This document shows positions 7,159 to 34,753 of a stretch of DNA of 34,753 bases, one piece after another. Positions within the stretch are counted from its first letter, which is position 1; each line of letters opens with the position of its first letter. The notes beneath the pieces were generated by a model. That model was not told where the DNA came from. It did not search any database and saw nothing but the letters and a program-made list of their open reading frames with translations. The position numbers were made by a program, and so were the translations under genes. The stretch is from Pristiophorus japonicus (Eukaryota), in contig NW_027251890.1 in the NCBI RefSeq assembly GCF_044704955.1, forward strand, positions 1 to 34,753, written 5' to 3'.

Positions 7159-7751
7159 ATGCAGAGAATTGTTGGTATCCTGGAGAAATTCTCAGAAGGG
7201 GACGATTGGGAGATCTTCGTGGAGTGAATCGACCAATACTTCATGGCCAACAAGCTGGAAGGGGACGAGAACGCGGCCAAACGAAGGGCGATCCTCCTCA
7301 CCGTCTGTGGGGCAACAGCCTATGGCCTCATGAAGAATCTTTTAGCTCCGGTGAAAGCAACAACCAAATCAAACGAAGAACTGTGTACGCTGGTCCGGGA
7401 GCACCTAAATCCAAAGGAAAGTGTTCTGATGGCAAGGTATTGATTTTACTCGTGTCAACGGTTTGAAGGCCAGGAAGTGGCGAGCTATGTCGCCGAACTA
7501 AGGCGCCTTGCAGGACATTGCAAATGCGATGGATTCCTTGAGCAAATGCTAAGAGACTTCTTTGTGCTTAGCATTGGCCATGATGTTATCCTTCGCAAAC
7601 TATTGACTGTTAAATCAATGAACCTGAGCAAAGCCATAACGATAGCCCAGGCATTTATGACCACCCGCGATAACACCAAAACAAATTTCATGGCACAAAG
7701 AGGTTTCGGCAAGTACTGTACACAAATTTATGTCATTTTCAGGTAGGAATG
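7159..7751 (+). pseudogene. Gypsy-1 gag, 5' part (stops and frameshift); continues at ~10567-10750 with degenerate CCHC knuckles
   Basis: MQRIVGILEKFSEGDDWE.., RAILLTVCG..Y.LMKNLLAP, YVAELRRLA.HC, LRDFFV; CWRCGG and GHLQRMC after the CR1. Confidence 0.85.
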
Positions 7752-10566
7752 TGATGTGATTGGGATTACGGAGACGTGGCTCCAGGATGAGCAGGGCTGG
7801 GAACTCAACATCCAGGGGTATTCAACATTCAGGAAGGATAGAATAAAAGGAAAAGGAGGTGGGGTAGCATTGCTGGTTAAGGAGGAGATTAAGGCAATAG
7901 TTAGGAAGGACATTAGCTTGGATGATGTGGAATGTATATGGGTAGAGCTGCAGAACACCAAAGGGCAAAAAACGTTAGTGGGAGTTGTGTACAGACCTCC
8001 AAACAGTAGTAGTGATGTTGGGGAGGGCATCAAACAGGAAATTAGGGGTGCGTGCAATAAAGGTGCAGCAGTTATAATGGGTGACTTTAATATGCACATA
8101 GATTGGGCTAACCAAACTGGAAGCAATACGGTGGAGGAGGATTTTCTGGAGTGCATAAGGGATGGTTTTTTAGACCAATATGTCGAGGAACCAACTAGGG
8201 GGGAGGCCATCTTAGACTGGGTGTTATGTAATGAGAAAGGATTAATTAGCAATCTCGTTGTGCGAGGCCCCTTGGGGAAGAGTGACCATAATATGGTGGA
8301 ATTCTGCATTAGGATGGAGAATGAAACAGTTAATTCAGAGACCATGGTCCAGAACTTAAAGAAGGCTAACTTTGAAGGTATGAGGCGTGAATTGGCTGAG
8401 ATGGATTGGCGAATGATACTTAAGGGGTTGACTGTGGATGGGCAATGGCAGACATTTAGAGACCGCATGGATGAACTACAACAATTGTACATTCCTGTCT
8501 GGCATAGAAATAAAAAAGGGAAGGTGGCTCAACCGTGGCTATCAAGGGAAATCAGGGATAGTATTAAAGCCAAGGAAGTGGCATACAAATTGGCCAGAAA
8601 TAGCAGCGAACCTGGGGACTGGGAGAAATTTAGAACTCAGCAGAGGAGGACAAAGGGTTTGATGAGGGCAGGGAAAATGGAGTATGAGAAGAAGCTTGCA
8701 GGGAACATTAAGACGGATTGCAAAAGTTTCTATAGATTTGTAAAGAGAAAAAGGTTAGTAAAGACAAATGTAGGTCCCCTGCAGTCAGAATCAGGGGAAG
8801 TCATAACGGGGAACAAAGAAATGGCGGACCAATTGAACAAGTACTTTGGTTCGGTATTCACGAAGGAGGACACGAACAACCTTCCGGTTATAAAAGGGGT
8901 CGGGGGGTCTAGTAAGGAGGAGGAACTGAGGGAAATCCTTATTAGTCGGGAAATTGTGTTGGGGAAATTGATGGGATTGAAGGCCGATAAATCCCCAGGG
9001 CCTGATGGACTGCATCCCAGAGTACTTAAGGAGGTGGCCTTGGAAATAGTGGATGCGTTGACAGTCATTTTCCAACATTCCATTGACTCTGGATCAGTTC
9101 CTATGGAGTGGAGGGTAGCCAATGTAACCCCACTTTTTAAAAAAGGAGGGAGAGAGAAAACAGGGAATTATAGACCGGTCAGCCTGACATCGGTAGTGGG
9201 TAAAATGATGGAATCAATTATTAAGGATGTCATAGCAGTGCATTTGGAAAGAGGTGACATGATAGGTCCAAGTCAGCATGGATTTGTGAAAGGGAAATCA
9301 TGCTTGACAAATCTTCTGGAATTTTTTGAGGATGTTTCCAGTAAAGTGGATAAGGGAGAACCAGTTGATGTGGTATATTTGGACTTTCAGAAGGCGTTCG
9401 ACAAGGTCCCACACAAGAGATTGATGTGCAAAGTTAGAGCACATGGGATTGGGGGTAGTGTACTGACATGGATTGAGAACTGGTTGTCAGACAGGAAGCA
9501 AAGAGTAGGAGTAAATGGGTACTTTTCAGAATGGCAGGCAGTGACTAGTGGTTCTGTGCTGGGGCCCCAGCTGTTTACACTGTACATTAATGATTTAGAT
9601 GAGGGGATTAAATGTAGTATCTCCAAATTTGCGGATGACACTAAGTTGGGTGGCAGTGTGAGCTGCGAGGAGGATGCTGTGAGGCTGCAGAGCGACTTGG
9701 ATAGGTTAGGTGAGTGGGCAAATGCATGGCAGATGAAGTATAATGTGGATAAATGTGAGGTTATCCACTTTGGTGGTAAAAACAGAGAGACAGACTATTA
9801 TCTGAATGGTGACAGATTAGGAAAAGGGGAGGTGCAAAGAGACCTGGGTGTCATGGTACATCAGTCATTGAAGGTTGGCATGCAGGTGCAGCAGGCGGTT
9901 AAGAAAGCAAATGGCATGTTGGCCTTCATAGCAAGGGGATTTGAGTACAGGGGCAGGGAGGTGTTGCTACAGTTGTACAGGGCATTGGTGAGGCCACACC
10001 TGGAGTATTGTGTACAGTTTTGGTCTCCTAACCTGAGGAAGGACATTCTTGCTATTGAGGGAGTGCAGCGAAGGTTCACCAGACTGATTCCCGGGATGGC
10101 GGGACTGACCTATCAAGAAAGACTGGATCAACTGGGCTTGTATTCACTGGAGTTCAGAAGAATGAGAGGGGACCTCATAGAAACATATAAAATTCTGACG
10201 GGGTTAGACAGGTTAGATGCAGGAAGAATGTTCCCAATGTTGGGGAAGTCCAGAACCAGGGGTCACAGTCTAAGGATAAGGGGTAAGCCATTTAGGACCG
10301 AGATGCGGAGGAACTTCTTCACCCAGAGAGTGGAGAACCTGTGGAATTCTCTACCACAGAAAGTTGTTGAGGCCAATTCACTAAATATATTCAAAAAGGA
10401 GTTAGATGAGGTCCTTACTGCTAGGGGGATCAAGGGGTATGGCGAGAAAGCAGGAATGGGGTACTGAAGTTGAATGTTCAGCCATGAACTCATTGAATGG
10501 CGGTGCAGGCTAGAAGGGCCGAATGGCCTACTCCTGCACCTATTTTCTATGTTTCTATGTTTCTAT
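7752..10566 (+). mobile_element. Young 5'-truncated CR1 LINE inserted in Gypsy-1 gag
   Basis: 903-aa ORF2, 3'UTR stem-loop and (TTTCTATG)n tail ending ~10566, where gag resumes. Confidence 0.97.
7756..10467 (+). CDS. CR1 ORF2 (APE endonuclease-reverse transcriptase): open frame, N-terminally truncated and lacking VPQG
   Basis: ITETWL, VYRPP, MGDFN, SDHN; GNYRPVSL, YLDFQKAFDKV, KFADD; reads VTSG^SVLGP where the sister copy reads TSGVPQGSVL. Confidence 0.85.
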   Translation: MIGITETWLQDEQGWELNIQGYSTFRKDRIKGKGGGVALLVKEEIKAIVRKDISLDDVECIWVELQNTKGQKTLVGVVYRPPNSSSDVGEGIKQEIRGACNKGAAVIMGDFNMHIDWANQTGSNTVEEDFLECIRDGFLDQYVEEPTRGEAILDWVLCNEKGLISNLVVRGPLGKSDHNMVEFCIRMENETVNSETMVQNLKKANFEGMRRELAEMDWRMILKGLTVDGQWQTFRDRMDELQQLYIPVWHRNKKGKVAQPWLSREIRDSIKAKEVAYKLARNSSEPGDWEKFRTQQRRTKGLMRAGKMEYEKKLAGNIKTDCKSFYRFVKRKRLVKTNVGPLQSESGEVITGNKEMADQLNKYFGSVFTKEDTNNLPVIKGVGGSSKEEELREILISREIVLGKLMGLKADKSPGPDGLHPRVLKEVALEIVDALTVIFQHSIDSGSVPMEWRVANVTPLFKKGGREKTGNYRPVSLTSVVGKMMESIIKDVIAVHLERGDMIGPSQHGFVKGKSCLTNLLEFFEDVSSKVDKGEPVDVVYLDFQKAFDKVPHKRLMCKVRAHGIGGSVLTWIENWLSDRKQRVGVNGYFSEWQAVTSGSVLGPQLFTLYINDLDEGIKCSISKFADDTKLGGSVSCEEDAVRLQSDLDRLGEWANAWQMKYNVDKCEVIHFGGKNRETDYYLNGDRLGKGEVQRDLGVMVHQSLKVGMQVQQAVKKANGMLAFIARGFEYRGREVLLQLYRALVRPHLEYCVQFWSPNLRKDILAIEGVQRRFTRLIPGMAGLTYQERLDQLGLYSLEFRRMRGDLIETYKILTGLDRLDAGRMFPMLGKSRTRGHSLRIRGKPFRTEMRRNFFTQRVENLWNSLPQKVVEANSLNIFKKELDEVLTARGIKGYGEKAGMGY

Positions 10567-10797: not shown

Positions 10798-12300
10798 ATG
10801 GCAGATCAGGCTGAACTAGAGACTCGAACCGAGGAGGCAGAAGTGTATGGGGTACACACCTTCACCACGAAATGTCCATCGAACATGCGAAAAGTTGAAC
10901 CGGATGGAATTCCAGTATCCATGGAACTGGACATGGGTGTGAGTCAGTCCATCATGAGCAAAAAGGCCTTCGACAGGCTGTGGTGCAACAAGGCACACAG
11001 GTCCAAGCTTAGCCCCATTCATACCAAGATAAGAATTTACACTAAAGAGCTGATCCCTGTTATTGGCAGCGCAGCAGTAAAAGTCTTCGATGATGGAGCA
11101 GTGCACGAACTTCCACTGTGGATTGTACCAGGAGATGGCCCCACACTGTTTGGCAGAAGCTGGCTGGGAAAAATCCTTTGGAACTGGGACGACATCCGAG
11201 CGCTTTCGTCCGTCACCGACGCTTCATGTGCCCAGGTTCTGAGCAAGTTCCCGTTGTTGTTTGAGCGAGGCATTGGAAGTTTCTTGGGGGCGAAGGTGCA
11301 GATCCACTTGGTTCCTGGTACACGACCCATCCACCACAAGGCACGTGCGGTGCCATACATGATGCGAGAGAAAGTGGAAATTGAGCTGGACAGGCTGCAG
11401 TGAGAAGGCATCATCGCGCCGGTGGAGTTCAACGAGTGGGCCAGTCCGATTGTTCCGGTTCTCAAAGGCGATGGCACGGTCAGAATTTGTGGGGACTATA
11501 AAGTAACAATTAACCATTTTTTGCTGCAGGACCAGTACCCGCTACCCAAGGCAGACGACCTATTTGCGACCCTGGCTGGAGGAAAGACGTTCACAAAGTT
11601 GGACCTGAACTTGGCCTACAGGAGCTGGCGGAATCTTTGAAAGGCCTCACCTGCACAAAGGTCTATTCATCTACAATAGATGCCCGTTTGGGAATCGATC
11701 ATCTGCGGCAATTTTTCAAAGGAACACGGAGAGCCTGCTAAAGTCAGTTCCGCGCACCATGGTTTTCCAGGACGACATACTGGTCACAGGTCGGAATACC
11801 ATTGAACTCTTGAAGAACCTGGAAGAGTTTCTAAGTCGGCTAGATTGCGCGGGACTCAGGTTGAAATGCTTGAAGTGTGTTTTCCTGGTGCCAGTGGTCA
11901 AGTTATTGGGGAGAAACATAGAAACATAGAAACATAGAAAATAGGTGCAGGAGTAGGCCATTCGGCCCCTCGAGCCCGCACCACCATTCAATGAATTCAT
12001 GGCTGAACATGCAACTTCAGTACCCCATTCCTGCGTTCTCGCCATACCCCTTGATCCCTCTAGTAGTAAGGACTACATCTAAGAATCGCGGCAGACGGCA
12101 TCAGACGGAGGGCATCAAGAATGCGCCGAGACCACAGAACGTGACGGAGCAGCGGACGTTCCTGGGACTCCTCAACTATTTGGGTAATTTCCTCCTACCC
12201 AGGTTAAGCACCTTGCTATATGTGCTGCTACGCAAGGGAGATGACTGAGTATGGGGGAAATCACAAGAGGCTGCGTTTGAGAAAGCCAGAAATCTGTTAT
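10798..12300 (+). pseudogene. Gypsy-1 pol: protease and reverse transcriptase (disrupted)
   Basis: MELDMG (degenerate DTG), LFGRSWL, WASPIVPVLK.DG.VRICGDYK, FTKLDL, VFQDDILV, FLGLLNY. Confidence 0.9.
11912..12081 (-). mobile_element. Short CR1 3'-end insertion (same subfamily as 7752-10566)
   Basis: (AGAAACAT)n tail and UTR; Gypsy RT (ggggagaa|...aagaatcgcggcagacggc) resumes after it. Confidence 0.93.
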
Positions 12301-15262
12301 AGAAACATAGAAAATAGGTGCAGGAGTTGGCCATTCGGCCCTTCAAGCCTGCACTACCATTCAATGAGTTCATGGCTGAACATGCAACTTCAATACCCCA
12401 TTCCTGCTTTTTCGCCATACCCCTTGATCCCCCGAATAGTAAGGACTACATCTAACTCCTTTTTGAATATATTTAGTGAATTGGCCTCAACAACTTTCTG
12501 TGGTAGAGAATTCCACAGGTTCACCACTCTCTGGGTGAAGAAGTTTCTCCTCATCTCGGTTCCAAATGGCTTATCCCTTATCCTTAGACTGTGACCCCTG
12601 GTTCTGGACTTCCCCAACATTGGGAACATTCTTCCTGCATCTAACCTGTCTAAACCCGTCAGAACTTGAAACGTTTCTATGAGATCCCCGCTCATTCTTC
12701 TGAACTCCAGTGAATACAAGCCCAGTTGATCCAGTCTTTCTTGTTATATCAGTCCCACCATCCTGGGAATCAGTCTGGTGAACCTTCGCTGCACTCCCTC
12801 AATAGCAAGAATGTCCTTCCTCAAGTTAGGAGACCAAAATTGTACACAATACTCCAGGTGTGGCCTCACCAAGGCCCTGTACAATTGTAGTAACACCTCC
12901 CTGCCCCTGTACTCAAATCCCCTCGCTATGAAGGCCAACATGCCATTTGCTTTCTTAACCGCCTGCTGTACCTGCATGCCAACCTTCAATGACTGATGTA
13001 CCATGACACCCAGGTCTCGTTGCACCTCCCCTTTTCCTAATCTGTCACCATACAGATAATAGTCTGTCTCTCTGTTTTTCCCACCAAAGTGGATAACCTC
13101 ACATTTATCCACACTATTTTCATCCGACATGCATTTGCCCACTCACCTAACCTATCCAACTCACTCTGCAGCCTCATAGCATCCTCCTCGCAGCTCACAC
13201 TGCCACCCAACTTAGTGTCATCCGCAAATTTGGAGATACTACATTTAATCCCCTCGTCTAAATCATTAATGTACAATGTAAACAGCTGGGGCACCAGCAC
13301 AGAACCTTGCGGTACCCCACTAGTCAGTGTCTGCCATTCTGAAAAGTACCCATTTACTCCTACTCTTTGCTTCCTGTCTGACAACCAGTTCTCAATCCAT
13401 GTCAGCACACTACCCCCAATACCATTTGCTTTAACTTTGCACATTAATCTCTTGTGTAGGACCTTGTCGAAAGCTGCTGAAAGTCCAAATACACCACATC
13501 AACTGGTTCTCCCTTGTCCACTCTACTGGAAACATCCTCAAAAAATTCCAGAAGATTTGTCAAGCATGACTTCCTATTCAAAAATCCATGCTGACTTGGA
13601 CCTATCATGTCACCTCTTTCCAAATGCGCTGCTATGACATCCTTAATAATTGATTCCATCATTTTACCCACTACCCATGTCAGGCTGACCGGTCTATAAT
13701 TCCCTGTTTTCTCTCTCCCTCCTTTTTTAAAAAGTGGGGTTACATTGGCTATCCTCCACTTCATAGGAACTGATCCAGAGTCTATAGAATGTTGGAAAAT
13801 GACTGTCAATGCATCCGCTATTTACAAGGTCACCTCCTTAAGTACTCTGGGATGCAATCCGTCAGGTCCTGGGGATTTATCGGCCTTCAATCCCATCAAT
13901 TTCCCCAACACAATTTCCCGACTAATAAGGATTTACCTTAGTTCCTCCTTCTTACTAGACCCTCTGACCCCTTTTATATCCGGAAGGTTGTTTGTGTCCT
14001 CCTTAGTGAATACTGAACCAAAATACTTGTTCAATTGGTCTGTCATTTCTTTGTTCCCAGTTATGACTTCCCCTGATTCTGACTGCAGGGGACCTACATT
14101 TGTCTTTACTAACCTTTTTCTCTTTACATATCTATAGAAGCTTTTGCAGTCCGCCTTAATGTTCCCTGCAAGCTTCCTCTCGTACTCTATTTTCCCTGCC
14201 CTTATCAAATCCTTTGTCCTCCTCTGCTGAGTTCTAAATTTCTCTCAGTCCCTGGGTTCGCTGCTATTTCTGGCCAATTTGTATGCCACTTCCTTGGCTT
14301 TAATACTATCCCTGATTTCCCTTGATAGCCACGGTTGAGCCACCTTCCCTTTTTTATTTTTACGCCAGACAATTGTTGTTGTTCATCCATGCGGTCTCTA
14401 AATGTCTGCCATTGCCCATCCACTGTCAACCCCTTAAGTATCATTCGCCAATCTATCCTAGCCAATTCACGCCTCATGCCTTCAAAGTTACCCTTCTTTA
14501 AGTTCTGGACCATGGTCTCTGAATTAACTGTTTCATTCTCCATCCTAATGTAGAATTCCACCATATTATGGTCACTCTTCCCCAAGGGACCTCACACAAT
14601 GAGATTGCTAATTAATTCTCTCTCATTACACAACACCCAGTCTAAGATGGCCTCCCCCCTCGTTGGTTCCTCGACATATTGATCTAGAAATCCATCCTTT
14701 ATGCACTCCAGGAAATCCTCCTCCACCGTATTGCTTCCAGTTTGGTTAGCCCAATCTATGTGCATATTAAAGTCACCCATGATAACTGCTGCACCTTTAT
14801 TGCATGCACCCCTAATTTCCTGTTTGATGCCCTCCCCAACATCACTACTACTGTTTGGAGGTCTGTACACAACTCCCCCTAACGTTTTTTGCCCTTGGTG
14901 TTCTGCAGCTCTACCCATATAGATTCCACATCATCCATGCTAATGTCCTTCCTAACTATTGCATTAATCTCCTCTTTAGCCAGCAATGCTACTCCACCTC
15001 CTTTTCCTTTTATTCTATATTTCCTGAATGTTGAACCCTTGGATGTTGAGTTCCCAGCCCTGATCATCCTGGAGCCACGTCTCTGTAATCCCAATCACAT
15101 CATATCTATTAACATCTATTTGCACAGTTAATTCATCCACCTTATTACGGATATTCTTTGCATTAAGACACAAAGCCTTCAGGTTTGTTTTTTTAACACC
15201 CTTTGTCCTTTTAGAATTATGATGTAGTGTGGCCCTTTTTGTTTCTTGCCTTTGTTTACTCG
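12301..15262 (-). mobile_element. CR1 LINE, whole ORF2 region, frameshifted
   Basis: Near-identical reverse complement of 7752-10566, extending further 5' (LKALCLNAKNIRNK); gttat TSD at 12296-12300 and 15263-15267. Confidence 0.97.
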
Positions 15263-27748: not shown

Positions 27749-28077
27749 CTACGCACATTCTGCTCTCCTGACTCCCTTGCTGAGGGGAGAGGAGAGGCTC
27801 TCGTGGGTGAGGCTGCAGGAGAAGCTGGCGTTGGACTCCCAGTCGGAGCCAGAGAGGGTCAGCAGGCTGCTGACACTGTAGGTGTTGTCCGAAGCTCGCA
27901 GGTAGTCGCTGGTCTGGACCCCGGCCGAAATGGTCGCCCCGTCCTTCTTCCACTCCACCTCCACCGCATCGGGGTAGAAGTGATCGGCGAGGCACACCAG
28001 GGTGGCAGTGCCCTTGGTCGTGACCTCCTCCGGGGAGGGGGGCAGCAGGGTCAGCGTGGGTGGGGTCTTCCCTCGGC
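27749..28077 (-). CDS. Immunoglobulin light-chain constant exon, elasmobranch type I (NS5 / sigma-cart)-like
   Basis: Polypyrimidine-CAG acceptor at 28078-28079, phase 1. Translation: (S)RGKTPPTLTLLPPSPEEVTTKGTATLVCLADHFYPDAVEVEWKKDGATISAGVQTSDYLRASDNTYSVSSLLTLSGSDWESNASFSCSLTHESLSSPLSKGVRRAECA*. Both C1-set Cys, FYP, Trp and the penultimate inter-chain Cys are intact. Isotype from recalled similarity. Confidence 0.95.
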
Positions 28078-28319
28078 CTGAAAGGGAGGAGAAGGATGTT
28101 TAATAGGTGTATATTAGTATGTGTGTGTGTGTGTGTGTGTCACTGTGGTGTTTCCGTGTGTTTTCATCTGATAACGGAGAGCTGGGTGAATGAACTCCTG
28201 GCTGGTGATTAACCATTAGAGGCGAGCAACACTAATTCTTAATCTTCTTTGCCTAGCTTGATAAGTTGCATCTAAATATAAATGCATTTGATGTTAAGGT
28301 GATTTAAAAAAAAAGATAG

Positions 28320-28650
28320 TCTTGCATTTATATTACGCCTTTCACAACCACCGGACATCTCAAAGCGCTTTACAGCCAATGAAGGACTTTTGGAGTGTCG
28401 TCACTGTTGTAATGTGTGAAACACGGCAGCCAATCTGTGCACAGCAAGCTCCCACAAACAGCGATGTGATAACGACATGATAATCTGTTCTTTTGTCACG
28501 TTGGTTGAGGGAGAAATATTGACCAGGACACCGGGGAGAACTCCCCTGCTCATCTTCAAAATAGTGGCATGGGATCTTTTATATCCACCTGAGAGGGCAA
28601 ACAGGGCCTTGGTTTAACGTCTGATCTGAAAGACGGCACCTCCGACAGTC
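28320..28650 (-). mobile_element. Deu-domain SINE (SacSINE1/AmnSINE-like) in the J-C intron
   Basis: gggatcttttatatccacctgagagggc..ggtttaacgtctgatctgaaagacggcacctccgacagt Deu core; L2-like tail. Confidence 0.8.
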
Positions 28651-28975
28651 CGGGGCTGGGAAGTCTAGAACAAGGAGTCACAGTCTCAGGATACGCGATA
28701 GGAAATTTACAAATGAGATGAGGAGAAATGTTTTCACTCAGAGGGTGGTGAACCTGTGGAATTCTCTGCCACAGAAGGCTGTGGAGGCCAAGTCACTGAA
28801 TATATTTAAGAGGCAGATAGATAGATTTCTAGAAACAAAAAGCATCAAGGGGTATGGGGAAAAAATGGGAATATGGTGTTGAGATAGAGGATCAGCCATG
28901 ATTATATTGAATGGCGGTGCAGACTCGAAGGGCCGAATGGCCTACTACTGCTCCTATTTTCTATGTTTCTATGTT
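28651..28975 (+). mobile_element. CR1 3' fragment in the J-C intron
   Basis: gagatgaggagaaatgttttcactcagagggtggtgaacctgtggaattc, UTR and tttctatg tail. Confidence 0.9.
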
Positions 28976-29529
28976 TAAGCGATGTAGGTCGAGGGATAAA
29001 TATCGGCCTGAACTCGAACCACAGAAACAGCAACTGAGAGTCTCCCCACAACCCTGGAGCACTGCAGCTGCCGGATTGCGAGCTCTGCTGCCCCTGTTTG
29101 CGATCAGAAGTTGGACAGGAGGTGAGCGGGGACTGGACAGATCAGAGTTGGAGCTGGGGGAGGCGGGACCTCGGGAGTGTCAGTGTGCTGAGGCTGAGCT
29201 CAGTTATATCAGAGACTGTGACAGGAGCACAGACTGCCCCCAGCGAGCTCACTCACTCACACCCACACTCTGCCCGTGTCTCACACACCGTGTCTGTCAC
29301 ACTGAGACAGGCAGGAGGCTCGGGAGTGATTTCCGGGGATGGTGCAGGGATGGGACCGCAGTGTGCCAACGTCCAGATCTCCTCCACACGGTGGGTAACA
29401 GTTCGTTACTTATACTTTGCTGGGTGAAGGGGGAGTGTGGGTAAAGGAATACAGCCGGGCTCCCTGTCATACACAGCACTCTTCAATTAACCCTTTCATT
29501 CACCGCAGCTCCCCACCATATTATATAAC

Positions 29530-29960
29530 CCATACAGAGGCACTGGAGAGGGTGCAGAGAGGGTTTACAAGGATGGGACCAGAAATGTGCGGGTGTACAT
29601 GTCAGGAAAGGGTGAACAGGCTGGGGCTCTTTTCTTTTGAGGCTGAGGGGTGACCTGATAGAGGTCTTTAACATTAGGAAAGGTTTTGATAGAGTGGATA
29701 CAGAGAGTGTGTTTCCACTTGTGGGGAAGAGCAGAACTAGAGACTATCAATATAAGATAGTCAGCAAGAAATCCAATCGGGAATTCAGGAGAAAATTCTT
29801 TACCCAGCGAGTGGTGAGAATGTGGAACTCGCTACCACAGGGAGTGATTGAAGTGAATAGTATCGATGTATTTAAGGGGAGGCTAGACAGGGATATGAGG
29901 GAGAAGGGAATAGAGGGTTATGCTGATAGATTTAGATGAGAAAAGACGGGAGGCTCGAGT
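29530..29960 (+). mobile_element. CR1 3' fragment in the J-C intron
   Basis: EALERVQRGFTRM; RLRGDLIEVF..FFTQRVVRMWNSLP. Confidence 0.9.
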
Positions 29961-30060
29961 GTAATCATATGTAAACTAAAACCTTCTCATATTCATCATT
30001 TGTGTCTGAGAAAGATTCAGTATTTAAAGTGTTAATAACAGAGCATTGGGGTTTACTTAC

Positions 30061-30095
30061 TCAGTCTGAGCTTGGTTCCTTTACCGAATGTGAGC
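30061..30095 (-). CDS. Immunoglobulin light-chain J segment (germline, unrearranged)
   Basis: G CTC ACA TTC GGT AAA GGA ACC AAG CTC AGA CTG A|GTAAGT = LTFGKGTKLRL(S); FGxGT motif; phase-1 donor splices in frame to the C exon. Confidence 0.96.
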
Positions 30096-30134
30096 CACAG
30101 TGACAGCTTCCAGTGCAGTGGCTGTACAATATCC
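30096..30134 (+). promoter_or_regulatory. Recombination signal sequence of J, 23-bp spacer
   Basis: CACAGTG (30096-30102), 23 nt, ACAATATCC (30126-30134; 7/9 match to ACAAAAACC). Confidence 0.95.
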
Positions 30135-30149
30135 TCCATCCCTGGCTCA

Positions 30150-30412
30150 CTCAGTCTCTCTCCCCCGCTCTCTGTCTGTCTGTGTGTGTGTGTGTGTGTG
30201 TGTCTGTGTGTGGGTTTCTTTCTCAGCGTCTCACTGTCTCCCTCACTTTATCTCTCTTTCTCACTCTCTCATTTTGCTTCTCTCTGACTGCCTCTCGCAC
30301 TCTTTCCCCCTCACTTTTTCTCCCTCTCCCTCTCCCCCTCTCTCGCTCTCCCTCTCCCTTCCTCCCTCCTTCACTCACTCCCCCTCCCTCACTCACTCCC
30401 TCCCTCTCTCTC
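30150..30412. repeat. (TG)n plus CT-rich polypyrimidine low-complexity tract
   Basis: Read directly. Confidence 0.9.
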
Positions 30413-30671
30413 TGTTTCCGAGTTGCCTGTGGCAGTACCCAGGAGAGTTGGGGACAAATCTCCCAGCTGCCCTTCCCGCCCCATCAGGCGGTAACCCTGG
30501 GGCCACGGAATTGCTGGAGAATGAAAGTCCCCGTCACACAGGGCTCACCTCTTTGTGCCCCTTGAACAACGGGCTCCGTCTGCAAGCGAGATATTTGTGT
30601 TGCTGACACAGGCCTTCCTCGTAGATCATTATAAAATAATGAGTTTCAGGGGCTTTAGAAACCTGTTTCCT

Positions 30672-31090
30672 CAGTCTGTGACCCGTGTGTACGTGGAGTG
30701 TGAGAGGATGCAGCCCCTCTTCCACTATTTGAAGGGGCTGCTGCTCGATTTTTGGCTCCACTTCAGTCCCACGCTCCTGGGCCTGGTCACCCGGTGCGGG
30801 GGGAGCGGGCAAGTCGGAGGGCCTCCCCGTGGGCCTGCTCCTGGGCCTGGTCACCCCGTGTGGGGGGAGCGGGCAGGTCAGAGGGCCTCCCCATGGGCCT
30901 GCTACTGGGCCTGGCCAAGGTGACCATCCACAGGTCCCAGTTGTCCCAGTTAGACGGGGCCCATGGAGTGGACACACTGCCTGCCTGCCTCCCTTCGGCG
31001 GTGTAGACCACACCCGGGTGGCCCTGGGGACGGAGCCCAGATTAGGCCTGAGGCCTTCTGCGACGGGTGGGCACCACAGGGCCTGGAGTG
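30672..31090 (+). mobile_element. Tx1/L1-like LINE ORF2 C-terminal fragment with a 64-bp internal tandem duplication
   Basis: SVTRVYVECERMQPLFHYLKGLLLDFWLHFSPTLL..GLLLGLAKVTIHRS resembles the post-zinc-knuckle region of Tx1 elements; duplicated units start at 30781 and 30845. Confidence 0.7.
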
Positions 31091-31457
31091 TGGGGTGGGC
31101 AGGGAAAGAACATGACGATTTCACTTGTTCACTTTCCTTTCATGTTTATGCTTTGGGTTTTATAAGTTGTGGCCCTCTCAATAGTGGGGGGTTTGTGAGA
31201 TTATTTGGATTGAGGACACAGGGACCACCCAGTGTCTCCGTGCTGTCTGAATGTACAGAGTAGAGCTGTGAGATTCTCAGTGATGAAGACACAGCCCCAA
31301 CTCCTCTCTGACCCACTCCATCCTTTCCCAATTCACTGCAACTTCCAGCTGAATATTCCTGCCATCACTCCCATCGAGCCGAATGTCAGTCATGTGTAAA
31401 ACCTTACAGGACGTGGGGCTGTGTGTCCATTATTATATATTATATATAACTGTGGGG

Positions 31458-31692
31458 TGTGATAGGTCCTTACTATACAGTATAAATGCATATGAGGCCC
31501 ATGCTTGAGCGAAGGTCAGTCTGTGACCTGTCCTTTATTCCTTAGCACTCAAGTGATGAAGGTGGGTGGAGCTTCCCCTTTTATACCTGAAGGTCCAGGT
31601 TAGGAGTGTCTCCCCCTCGTGGTCATTGTTCTCACAGTGTACAACTTAGGTCAGATTATACATGGGTTACAATGCTGGTTGAATACATGACA
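31458..31692 (-). repeat. 3' LTR of Gypsy-3
   Basis: TG..CA ends; adjacent PPT (plus strand tcacctcccccctc, 31693-31706); homologous to 25283-25531. Confidence 0.93.
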
Positions 31693-34600
31693 TCACCTCC
31701 CCCCTCAAAGTCTTATTGGGATCACAGGTTGAGTCTCTCTGATGGTTTATGCTCTCTTGTAGAGCGCCTGAGTTGGGGCTCCGGTTGTTGGGCGCTGGCC
31801 TGAGTGTTTGCTTTTTGCGGTGCCTCAGGCCTATCCAGACGGCCCACAGTGATTGGGCTCTCCAACCTTTGGTTCCGGTGTTCGGTCACCTGTGGTGGAG
31901 TGAACTCTACATCGTGTTCTTCCTCTGCTTCTGCGATGGGGTTGCTGAGCCTCCTTTTTGTTTGATCCACGTGTTTGCGGCAGATTTGTCCATTGGTAAG
32001 TTTAACTACCAGAATCCTATTTCCCTCTTTGGCAATCACAGTGCCTGCGAGCCATTTGGGCCCTGCAGCGTAGTTGAGGACAAAAACAGGATCATTTACA
32101 TCAATACATCATGCCCTCGCATTCCTGTCATGGTACTCATATTGTGGCTAGCGCCTGCTCTGGACAATTTCTTTCATGGTCGGGTGTATAAAGGATAGTC
32201 GGGTTTTGAGCATCCTTTTCATTAGCAGCTCTGCGGGTGGAACCCCTGTGAGCGAGTGTGGTCGGGATCTATAGGCCAACAGGGGGCGTGATAAGCGCCT
32301 TTGTAGGGAGCCCCCTTGGATTCTAAGCGTCCCCTGTTTGATTATCTGCACTGCTCGTTCTGCCTGGCCGTTTGAGGCAGGCTTGAACGGTGCCATTTTA
32401 ACATGGTTAATTCCATTGCCTGCCATTTAGTCCTGGAATTCAGTGCTTGTGAAGCACGCGCCATTGTCGCTGACCAAGACGTCCGGTAGACCCGTGGGCG
32501 GCGAACATTGCCCGTAGACTTTCTAACGTGGTAGAGGATGTGCTTGAATTTAAAATGTCACACTCGATCCATTTGGAGCAGGCGTCTACTACAACCAAAA
32601 ACATTTTCCCCATGAAAGGACCTGCGTAGTCCACATGGATGCGTGACCAAGGCTTGGCGGGCCATGACCAAGGACTAAGGGGGGCTTCACTGGGCGCATT
32701 GCCCAGCTGGGCACATGTGTTGCACCTGCGAACACAAAGTTCCAGATCTGCGTCTATCCCTGGCCACCAAACGTGTGACCTGGCAATTGCCTTCATCATG
32801 ACAATGCCCGGGTGCTCATTGTGGAGTTCTCTGATGAACACCTCTCTGCACATCTGGGGCATGACTACTGCGGTTTCCCCACAGTAGGCAATCAGTCTGA
32901 ATCGAGAGTTCATCCCTGCGCTTGTGAAATGGTTTAAATTTCTCAGGGCATGCCCTGTACGTGGCTGCCCAGTCCCCATTCAGGACACATTTCTTGACTA
33001 GAGACAATAGCGGGTCTCTGTTTGTCCAGACTTTAATCTGATGGGCTGTCATGGGTGAGCCTTCACTTCCGAAAGCTTCAACAGCTATGACCATCTCAAC
33101 AGCATGCTCAGTAGCCCCCTCAGTGGTGGCTTGTGGGAGCCTGCTGAGTGTATCGGCGCAGTTTTCAGTACCCGGTCTGTGTCGAATTGTATAGTCATAG
33201 GCGGCTAACGTGAGTGCCCACCTCTGTATGCGGGCCGATGCGTTTGCATTTATGGCCTTGTTGTCGGCCAAAAGGGAGGTTCAGGGTTTGTGATCTGTCT
33301 CCAGCTCAAATTTCCTGCCAAACAGGTATTGGTGCATTTTCTTTACCGCATATACACATGCGAGCGCCTCTTTTTCTCCCATCCCGTAACCCCTTTCTGC
33401 CTGGGACAGACTCCTCGAGGCATAAGCTCCTGGCTATAACTGACCCTTGACATTGACATGCTGCAACACACAACCGACAACATAGGACGATGCATTGCAC
33501 GATAACCCAAGTTTCTTACATGGGTCGTATAGTGTTAACAGAGTGTTGGAGCATAACAAATTGCATGCTCTATTAAAAGCCCTTTCCTGGCTGTCCCCCC
33601 AAACCCATTCACGACCTTTGCGTAGGAGCACGTGTAGCGGCTCTAGCAGCATGCTCAATTTCGGAAGAATGTTACCAAAATAGTTCAGGAGCCCCAGGAA
33701 CGAACGCAGCTCCGTCATGTTACGGGATCTGGGTGCTCTCTGGATCGCTTCAGTCTTGGATGCAGTAGGGCTGATCCCGTCTGCTGCTACCCTCATCCAA
33801 AGGAATTCTACCTGTGGAGCTAGGAAGATGCACTTCGCCTTTTTCAGTCACAGCCTACCCGGTGCAGTCTGTGTAGCACCTCCTCCAGGTTGTGGAGTTG
33901 TTCTTCAGTATCGTAACCCGTGATGAGGATGTCGTCCTGAAAAACCACCGTCCCTGGAATCGACTTGAGGAGGCTTTCCATATTTCATTGGAACATCGCG
34001 GCGGCCGAGCGAATCCCGAACGGACATCTGTTGTACTCAAACAACCCCTTGTGTGTCGTGATGGTGGTCAGCTTCTTTGACTCACTCGCCAGCTCCAGAC
34101 TGTAAGCTGAGGTCAGGTCCAATTTTGAAAAAAGTTTGCCACCGGATAACGTCGCAAAGAGGTCCTCCGCTCTCGGTAGCAGGTACTGGTCTTGGAGTGA
34201 CACCCGATTAATGGTGGCCTTGTAATCACCACATATCCTGACCGACCCATTCGCCTTGAGCACTGGCATGATTGGGCTTGCCCAGTCACTGAATTCGACT
34301 GGAGAGATGATGCCTTCCCTCAGCAGGCGGTCCAATTTGCCTTCTATCTTTTCCCGCATCACTTACGGCACCGCTCTAGCCTTGTGGTTTACTGGCCTGG
34401 CATCCGGGTTTATGTGAATCACTACCTTGGCCCCCATGAAAGTGCTGATGCCGGGTTGAAATAATGAGTCAAATTTGTCCAGGATCTGTGAGCATGATAC
34501 TCGCTCCACAGAGGAAATTGCATTGACATCGCCCCATTTCCAGGACATGACAGCAAGCCAACTCCTCCCCAGTAGTGCGGGACCGTCCCCTGGGACAATC

Positions 34601-34753
34601 CAGAGTGGCAACCTGTTCTCCGAATCTTTGTGGGTCACACAACCGTGGCGCTGCCTAGCACCGGAATGATGTGCTTTATGTAAGTCCGTAGCTGTGCGTC
34701 AATCGGTGATAATTTTGGCCTCCTGGCCTTGGACGCCCACAACTTTTCGAACT
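31458..34753 (-). mobile_element. Degenerate Gypsy (Mag-like) element: PR-RT-RNaseH-IN-3'LTR, running off the window end
   Basis: LLGRSWL, WASPIMPVLK..VRICGDYK, FLGLLNYF, RIQRWAL, HPG..WWPG..C..C, HVDYAGP, SNGQAERAVQ; multiple frameshifts. Confidence 0.95.

Follow-up and report, generated by a model that had tools for sequence, protein, structure and literature searches.

An immunoglobulin (Ig) light-chain unit lies on contig NW_027251890.1 of the shark Pristiophorus japonicus, and the entire contig (C1278:1-34753, 34,753 bp; hereafter the window) was analysed. Within the window, the unit comprises a joining (J) segment and a constant (C) exon without a variable (V) segment. It almost certainly belongs to a V-J-C light-chain cluster of the kind usual in sharks, in which a 4.1-kb Gypsy retrotransposon occupies the V-J spacer; the V segment was cut off by the end of the contig, itself likely a copy from a second haplotype. 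The last base of the window falls within pol of the Gypsy element. C1278 therefore carries no more than 4.6 kb upstream of J, and nothing follows beyond the window on this contig. What looked anomalous comes down to the end of a contig and to a retrotransposon insertion, itself a common event, within one cluster among dozens that are nearly identical.

The missing V segment was located on a copy of the window on C8. The genome was searched with the C exon, and 19 of the best C matches were taken with ~9.6 kb of upstream sequence, among them a stretch of C8 (L004) that is 99.93% identical to the window over the 7 kb compared. The whole window aligns in reversed orientation to C8:146,770,943-146,805,694 with 99.971% identity (34,755 columns, 5 mismatches and 2 gap openings, both of the latter in microsatellites). 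Past the last base of C1278, the C8 copy continues with 826 bp of Gypsy sequence, ~100 bp of spacer, a recombination signal sequence with a 12-bp spacer (12-RSS), a V exon and a leader. This leader-V is the only one in the copy, and the V end lies 954 bp past the last base of C1278. The leader (MISPIQLIWPLAFCVA) begins with ATG at L004:1456 and has its GT donor at L004:1505, the V exon (L004:1692-1990) has an open frame, and the V signal, starting at L004:1991, reads CACTGTG-12-ACAAAAACC. V, J and C are all placed on one strand, and the 12-RSS of V and the 23-RSS of J face each other in a 12/23-compatible arrangement. The cluster plan of elasmobranch light chains is present on this 99.97% identical copy, and since a V segment stands there, the unit of the window does not belong among V-less J-C units, which have no V in their own upstream flank. 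Most likely, C1278 is a redundant contig that represents the C8 stretch on the second haplotype: the two run colinear over the full length of the contig, C1278 shows no private junction, and the unplaced contigs C53, C113 and C1231 likewise reproduce C8 spacing patterns. Judged by these patterns, redundant contigs are common at the light-chain locus.

The Gypsy element is complete in outline on the C8 copy, where it occupies L004:2118-6237 (4,120 bp) inside the V-J spacer. It has the structure of a Ty3/Gypsy insertion, with two TG...CA long terminal repeats (LTRs; the 5' one seen on the C8 copy) of 234 and 233 bp that are 95.3% identical, reverse transcriptase placed before integrase, and a 5-bp target duplication with the flanks CAGCC/CACCC (one mismatch), the right copy of which is found at 31455-31459 of the window. 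Unlike in a typical Ty3/Gypsy insertion, the coding region is broken, and its longest open stretch is 179 codons. The insertion site is a 60-bp tandem repeat situated ~100 bp past the V signal. This repeat (L004:2020-2117 and the corresponding positions in paralogues) trails the V signal with varying copy number in all clusters read, and at this repeat the resemblance of orphan V segments to the normal spacer breaks off. The distance between the two signals of the C8 copy amounts to 5,611 bp, or 1,486 bp without the Gypsy element, and nine other unjoined clusters measured in the same way span 1,367-1,948 bp. The V-J distance has been stretched from about 1.5 to 5.6 kb by the Gypsy element. The earlier note, which described the window as an intact J-C unit without V, had offered three alternatives, the first being that a transposable element insertion pushed V several kilobases away, and had named a single V immediately beyond the Gypsy element as the refuting result that would reduce its finding to such a displacement; such a V was found in the C8 copy, which bears out the first alternative. 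By the rules of V(D)J recombination, RAG-mediated joining of V and J would be deletional here and would remove the spacer together with the Gypsy element, as in the other clusters. A separately assembled continuation contig of C1278 was sought by the 5' junction pattern of the element and none was found, the pattern occurring once in the genome, on C8. The 3' junction pattern occurs three times.

The absence of V from the window itself, which the earlier note had reported, was confirmed by tblastn, blastn and motif searches. The tblastn search of the family V against the whole window gave a single 30-aa match with an E value of 0.2, and blastn of the leader-V-RSS sequence against the whole window gave zero matches. 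Neither a V motif nor a convincing 12-RSS was present upstream of J in the window, and the rest of it yielded no V on the plus or minus strand; an inverted V downstream of C was likewise looked for and is absent. However, one of the note's tests, the plus-strand CACTGTG search, was blind: the V heptamer of this family is CACTGTG on the coding strand, so its plus-strand form in the window would be CACAGTG, and the V signal could not have been found in that way. The microsatellite and the supposed short unique patches at 30135-31459 also proved to be normal V-J spacer sequence, which shares 80-93% identity with its counterparts in paralogous clusters. A misassembly near 30135-31458, which had been considered as a source of the anomaly, is ruled out by this conservation.

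The window's unit is one cluster in a large array on C8. V and J matches were paired with C genome-wide, and the resulting counts are lower bounds, since the J search overlooked one or more diverged segments, among them that of L047. The genome contains 98 C matches of high identity, 69 V and 61 J matches of this family; 76, 54 and 46 of them, respectively, are located on C8, with the C matches nearly all within 143.4-148.8 Mb. A same-strand V was found 1,296-1,975 bp upstream (median 1,505 bp) in 53 of the 61 J matches, and the others comprise four germline-joined copies, the C8 twin of the window (5,623 bp in this pairing), the window itself and two J without a V of their own. The premise that V normally lies a few hundred base pairs from J is valid for the nurse shark; in this genome, however, 1.3-2.0 kb is normal. 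Set against the paralogues, the spacing of the C8 copy is normal at 1,486 bp once the Gypsy element is subtracted, whereas the full 5,611 bp falls outside their range. The dense array at C8:143.36-148.82 Mb contains clusters in both orientations, and in it the C matches outnumber those of V or J and many C exons stand alone. About nine V segments on C8 have no J, and several of these are followed by one and the same C-rich minisatellite and an inverted C 15-21 kb away. Two germline-joined V-J genes, L043 (C8:148,180,059-148,180,381) and L044 (C8:146,963,981-146,964,303), are both joined out of frame. The first V cysteine is also missing from L043, and within 270 kb of L044 there is no C on its strand.

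Two other explanations of the window were weighed. C1278 could be a separate locus that arose from the C8 cluster by very recent segmental duplication and lost its V, and hence a true V-less J-C unit. The array is rich in recent duplicates, partial units are common according to the above counts, and an older sister of the unit at C8:145.88 Mb with the same Gypsy junction did lose its V. This V-less sister, however, is ~6% diverged, with a visible breakpoint and a frameshifted C, whereas C1278 shows no novel junction at 99.971% identity; colinear as it is to both ends, the loss of V would have to begin exactly at or beyond the contig end. Such a duplicate is very improbable, and the recent partial duplicate suggested in the earlier note found no support, C1278 following C8 to its last base. 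It is also conceivable, though unlikely, that V is present but the cluster is functionally dead or its J-C serves other V genes, the Gypsy element silencing or blocking V-J joining and leaving the J-C unit open to orphan V segments. The V of the C8 copy is the sole one with Y-H-C instead of Y-Y-C among 17 family V exons compared, and it carries an extra cysteine in the third complementarity-determining region (CDR3). In addition, about 6 kb of the J-C intron have been lost from the window's unit, and nine V matches on C8 stand without a J nearby (one with a diverged J removed), several of them with an intact 12-RSS. On the other hand, the C8 copy is intact in its leader and splice sites, in the frame of V, in the promoter-proximal sequence and in both signals, the coding region of the Gypsy element is broken, and shark rearrangement is reported to take place almost only within clusters (PMC4279169), with one interlocus case among 58 clones (PMC2435157). 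The proposal of a V-less J-C unit serving distant V genes is unsupported at this locus, where the C8 copy has its own V.

An ordinary cluster interrupted by the contig end is the preferred explanation. The Y-H-C motif, the extra CDR3 cysteine and the shortened J-C intron suggest that this cluster may be rearranged less often or may be decaying. Several observations weigh against the preferred explanation. The V segment is seen on the C8 copy and would by extension be present next to C1278, while the five mismatches and two microsatellite gaps suit an allele and a very young duplicate equally. Contigs from four of the nine listed sequencing runs (X8, X9, X1 and X2) that map to L004 display leader-V splicing and one V-J joint; their joined V is a paralogue differing from the V of the C8 copy by 13 letters and 3 gaps. 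No transcript of the C8-copy V occurs among the contigs from these four runs, a result that is neutral on whether the copy is used. The isotype name given below is tentative, and among the closest database proteins the labels are lambda-like or kappa, the latter in several cases, one of them a direct submission; shark chains at 77-92% identity are named kappa, lambda-like or not at all. The window's cluster offers a natural test of whether a 4-kb V-J insertion lowers the use of a shark cluster.

The genome does contain two J-C units that truly lack a V, both on C8 and outside the window, and one of them is intact. L035 (C8:145,880,300-145,884,962) is the older sister of the window's unit, 94% identical to it and sharing with it the Gypsy 3' junction and the short intron. 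No V was found in the 37 kb read upstream of its J, a breakpoint is visible, and other repeats stand in place of the 5' part of the Gypsy element. L035 is a pseudogene, its C being frameshifted and its J motif altered. The second unit (C8:159,556,840-159,564,832, plus strand, within L037-L042) has an intact 23-RSS, J and C, and a deletion of about 0.8 kb has removed its leader, V and V signal. At C8:159,520,008-159,520,292 on the minus strand stands an orphan V that is intact, has a 12-RSS and lacks a J or C of its own. It is situated 36.5 kb upstream of the V-less unit on the opposite strand, and the pair is 10.7 Mb away from any other cluster. The geometry allows inversional joining, and the C8:159.5 Mb region is a better candidate for cross-cluster joining than the window. 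Two of the nine listed runs gave contigs on the orphan V, all with paralogue-derived V and neutral on the use of the orphan V. It is improbable that this pair, or an orphan V and the Gypsy-displaced J-C unit, is joined across cluster borders in B cells. If it were, a shark light-chain locus would recombine across cluster borders by inversion, which would resemble teleosts and mark a move away from clusters in the direction of a translocon. The rule that rearrangement of shark Ig genes is almost confined to single clusters would be weakened if such joining were proved. Inversional joining between clusters is described for zebrafish light chains (PMC3014032) and is what a V-less reading of the window would resemble; the corresponding geometry is present here at C8:159.52-159.57 Mb and not at the unit of the window, whose own V is oriented for deletion. 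A literature search in a limited library turned up nothing specific about the C8 array, nor about shark light chains joining across clusters, and does not prove absence.

The isotype of the window's unit is probably sigma-2 (NS5, type I), as suggested by sequence motifs and by the location of germline-joined and long-CDR2 families elsewhere in the genome. The C sequence presumably matches NS5/type I and not NS4. It is 92% identical to a light chain of Squalus acanthias and 77-83% identical to nurse, horn and basking shark chains. The closest named proteins are light chains of sharks, namely UniRef entries labelled Pristiophorus japonicus (98-100% identity), the Squalus acanthias chain (92%) and chains of horn, basking, bamboo and nurse sharks (76-85%). 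A PDB search returned only mammalian and unrelated Ig chains. Separate light-chain families (L053-L056) comprise germline-joined genes at C8:177.7-179.5 Mb and split 12/23 long-CDR2 genes at C18:47.48-47.71 Mb, from which the window family is set apart by C exons only 40-48% identical. We take the former to be lambda-like and the latter sigma-like, assuming that lambda genes are all germline-joined and that sigma genes have a long CDR2. The elimination towards sigma-2 is incomplete, as kappa was not located in the genome. A search by motif and accession found no labelled NS5 reference, and the NS5 primer sequences are absent from the main text of PMC2435157. Genome annotation can mislabel sigma-2 as kappa-like, as exemplified by the gar (PMC5985310).

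Elasmobranch light chains follow the V-J-C cluster plan, with split and germline-joined copies mixed (PMC5192425, PMC4279169, PMC2435157, PMC5985310). The family described here resembles sigma-2 (sigma-cart, NS5, type I) clusters in having one each of V, J and C, 12/23 signals, and both split and joined copies. The many split clusters with few germline-joined ones are also a feature of elasmobranch kappa (NS4, type III) (PMC2193156). The large copy number is similar to that of skate type I, for which at least 89 clusters are reported (PMC2192082); the skate genes, however, are all germline-joined, in contrast to 4 of the 61 J matches here. The nurse shark has only four NS5 loci, and the V-J distance of NS5-2 is ~390 bp as derived from PCR products of 880 and 490 bp (PMC2435157), compared with ~500 bp in NS4 (PMC2193156). 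The spacing of 1.3-2.0 kb observed here (5.6 kb in the Gypsy copy) is three to five times that of nurse shark NS5-2 and NS4.

The J, 23-RSS, splice sites and C exon of the window are intact, as the earlier note had stated, and all are located on the minus strand. The C exon (27749..28077) has an open frame, an AG acceptor and a TAG stop after the terminal RAECA, and it matches the Pfam C1-set domain with an E value of 1.4e-24; at the amino-acid level, 12 further C exons of full length in this genome are 100% identical to it. The J-C intron (28078..30060, minus strand, ~1.98 kb) belongs to the shortest class, the median of 60 J-C introns in the genome-wide pairing being 8.7 kb. It lacks the ~6-kb middle common to the long-intron paralogues L009, L010, L012 and L041-42, in place of which a 320-bp repeat fragment is found. 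The J segment (LTFGKGTKLRLS; 30061..30095, minus strand) has its GT donor at 30060 and is adjoined by its recombination signal (30096..30134, minus strand), which consists of a consensus heptamer (30096-30102), a 23-bp spacer and a nonamer (30126-30134) with two mismatches that are the same in paralogues. The J-proximal part of the V-J spacer (30135..31459, no strand assigned) contains the microsatellite, a 64-bp tandem repeat and one unit of the 60-bp spacer repeat. It is followed by the 3' LTR of the Ty3/Gypsy element (31460..31692, minus strand, 233 bp) and by the broken pol region (31693..34753, minus strand), in which reverse transcriptase and integrase pieces are interrupted by stops and frameshifts up to the cut at the contig end. 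Elsewhere in the window, a 2.8-kb repeat is present twice, at 7749-10558 and 12299-15105, as copies inverted relative to one another with 94% identity, and further ones are found in neighbouring C8 stretches.

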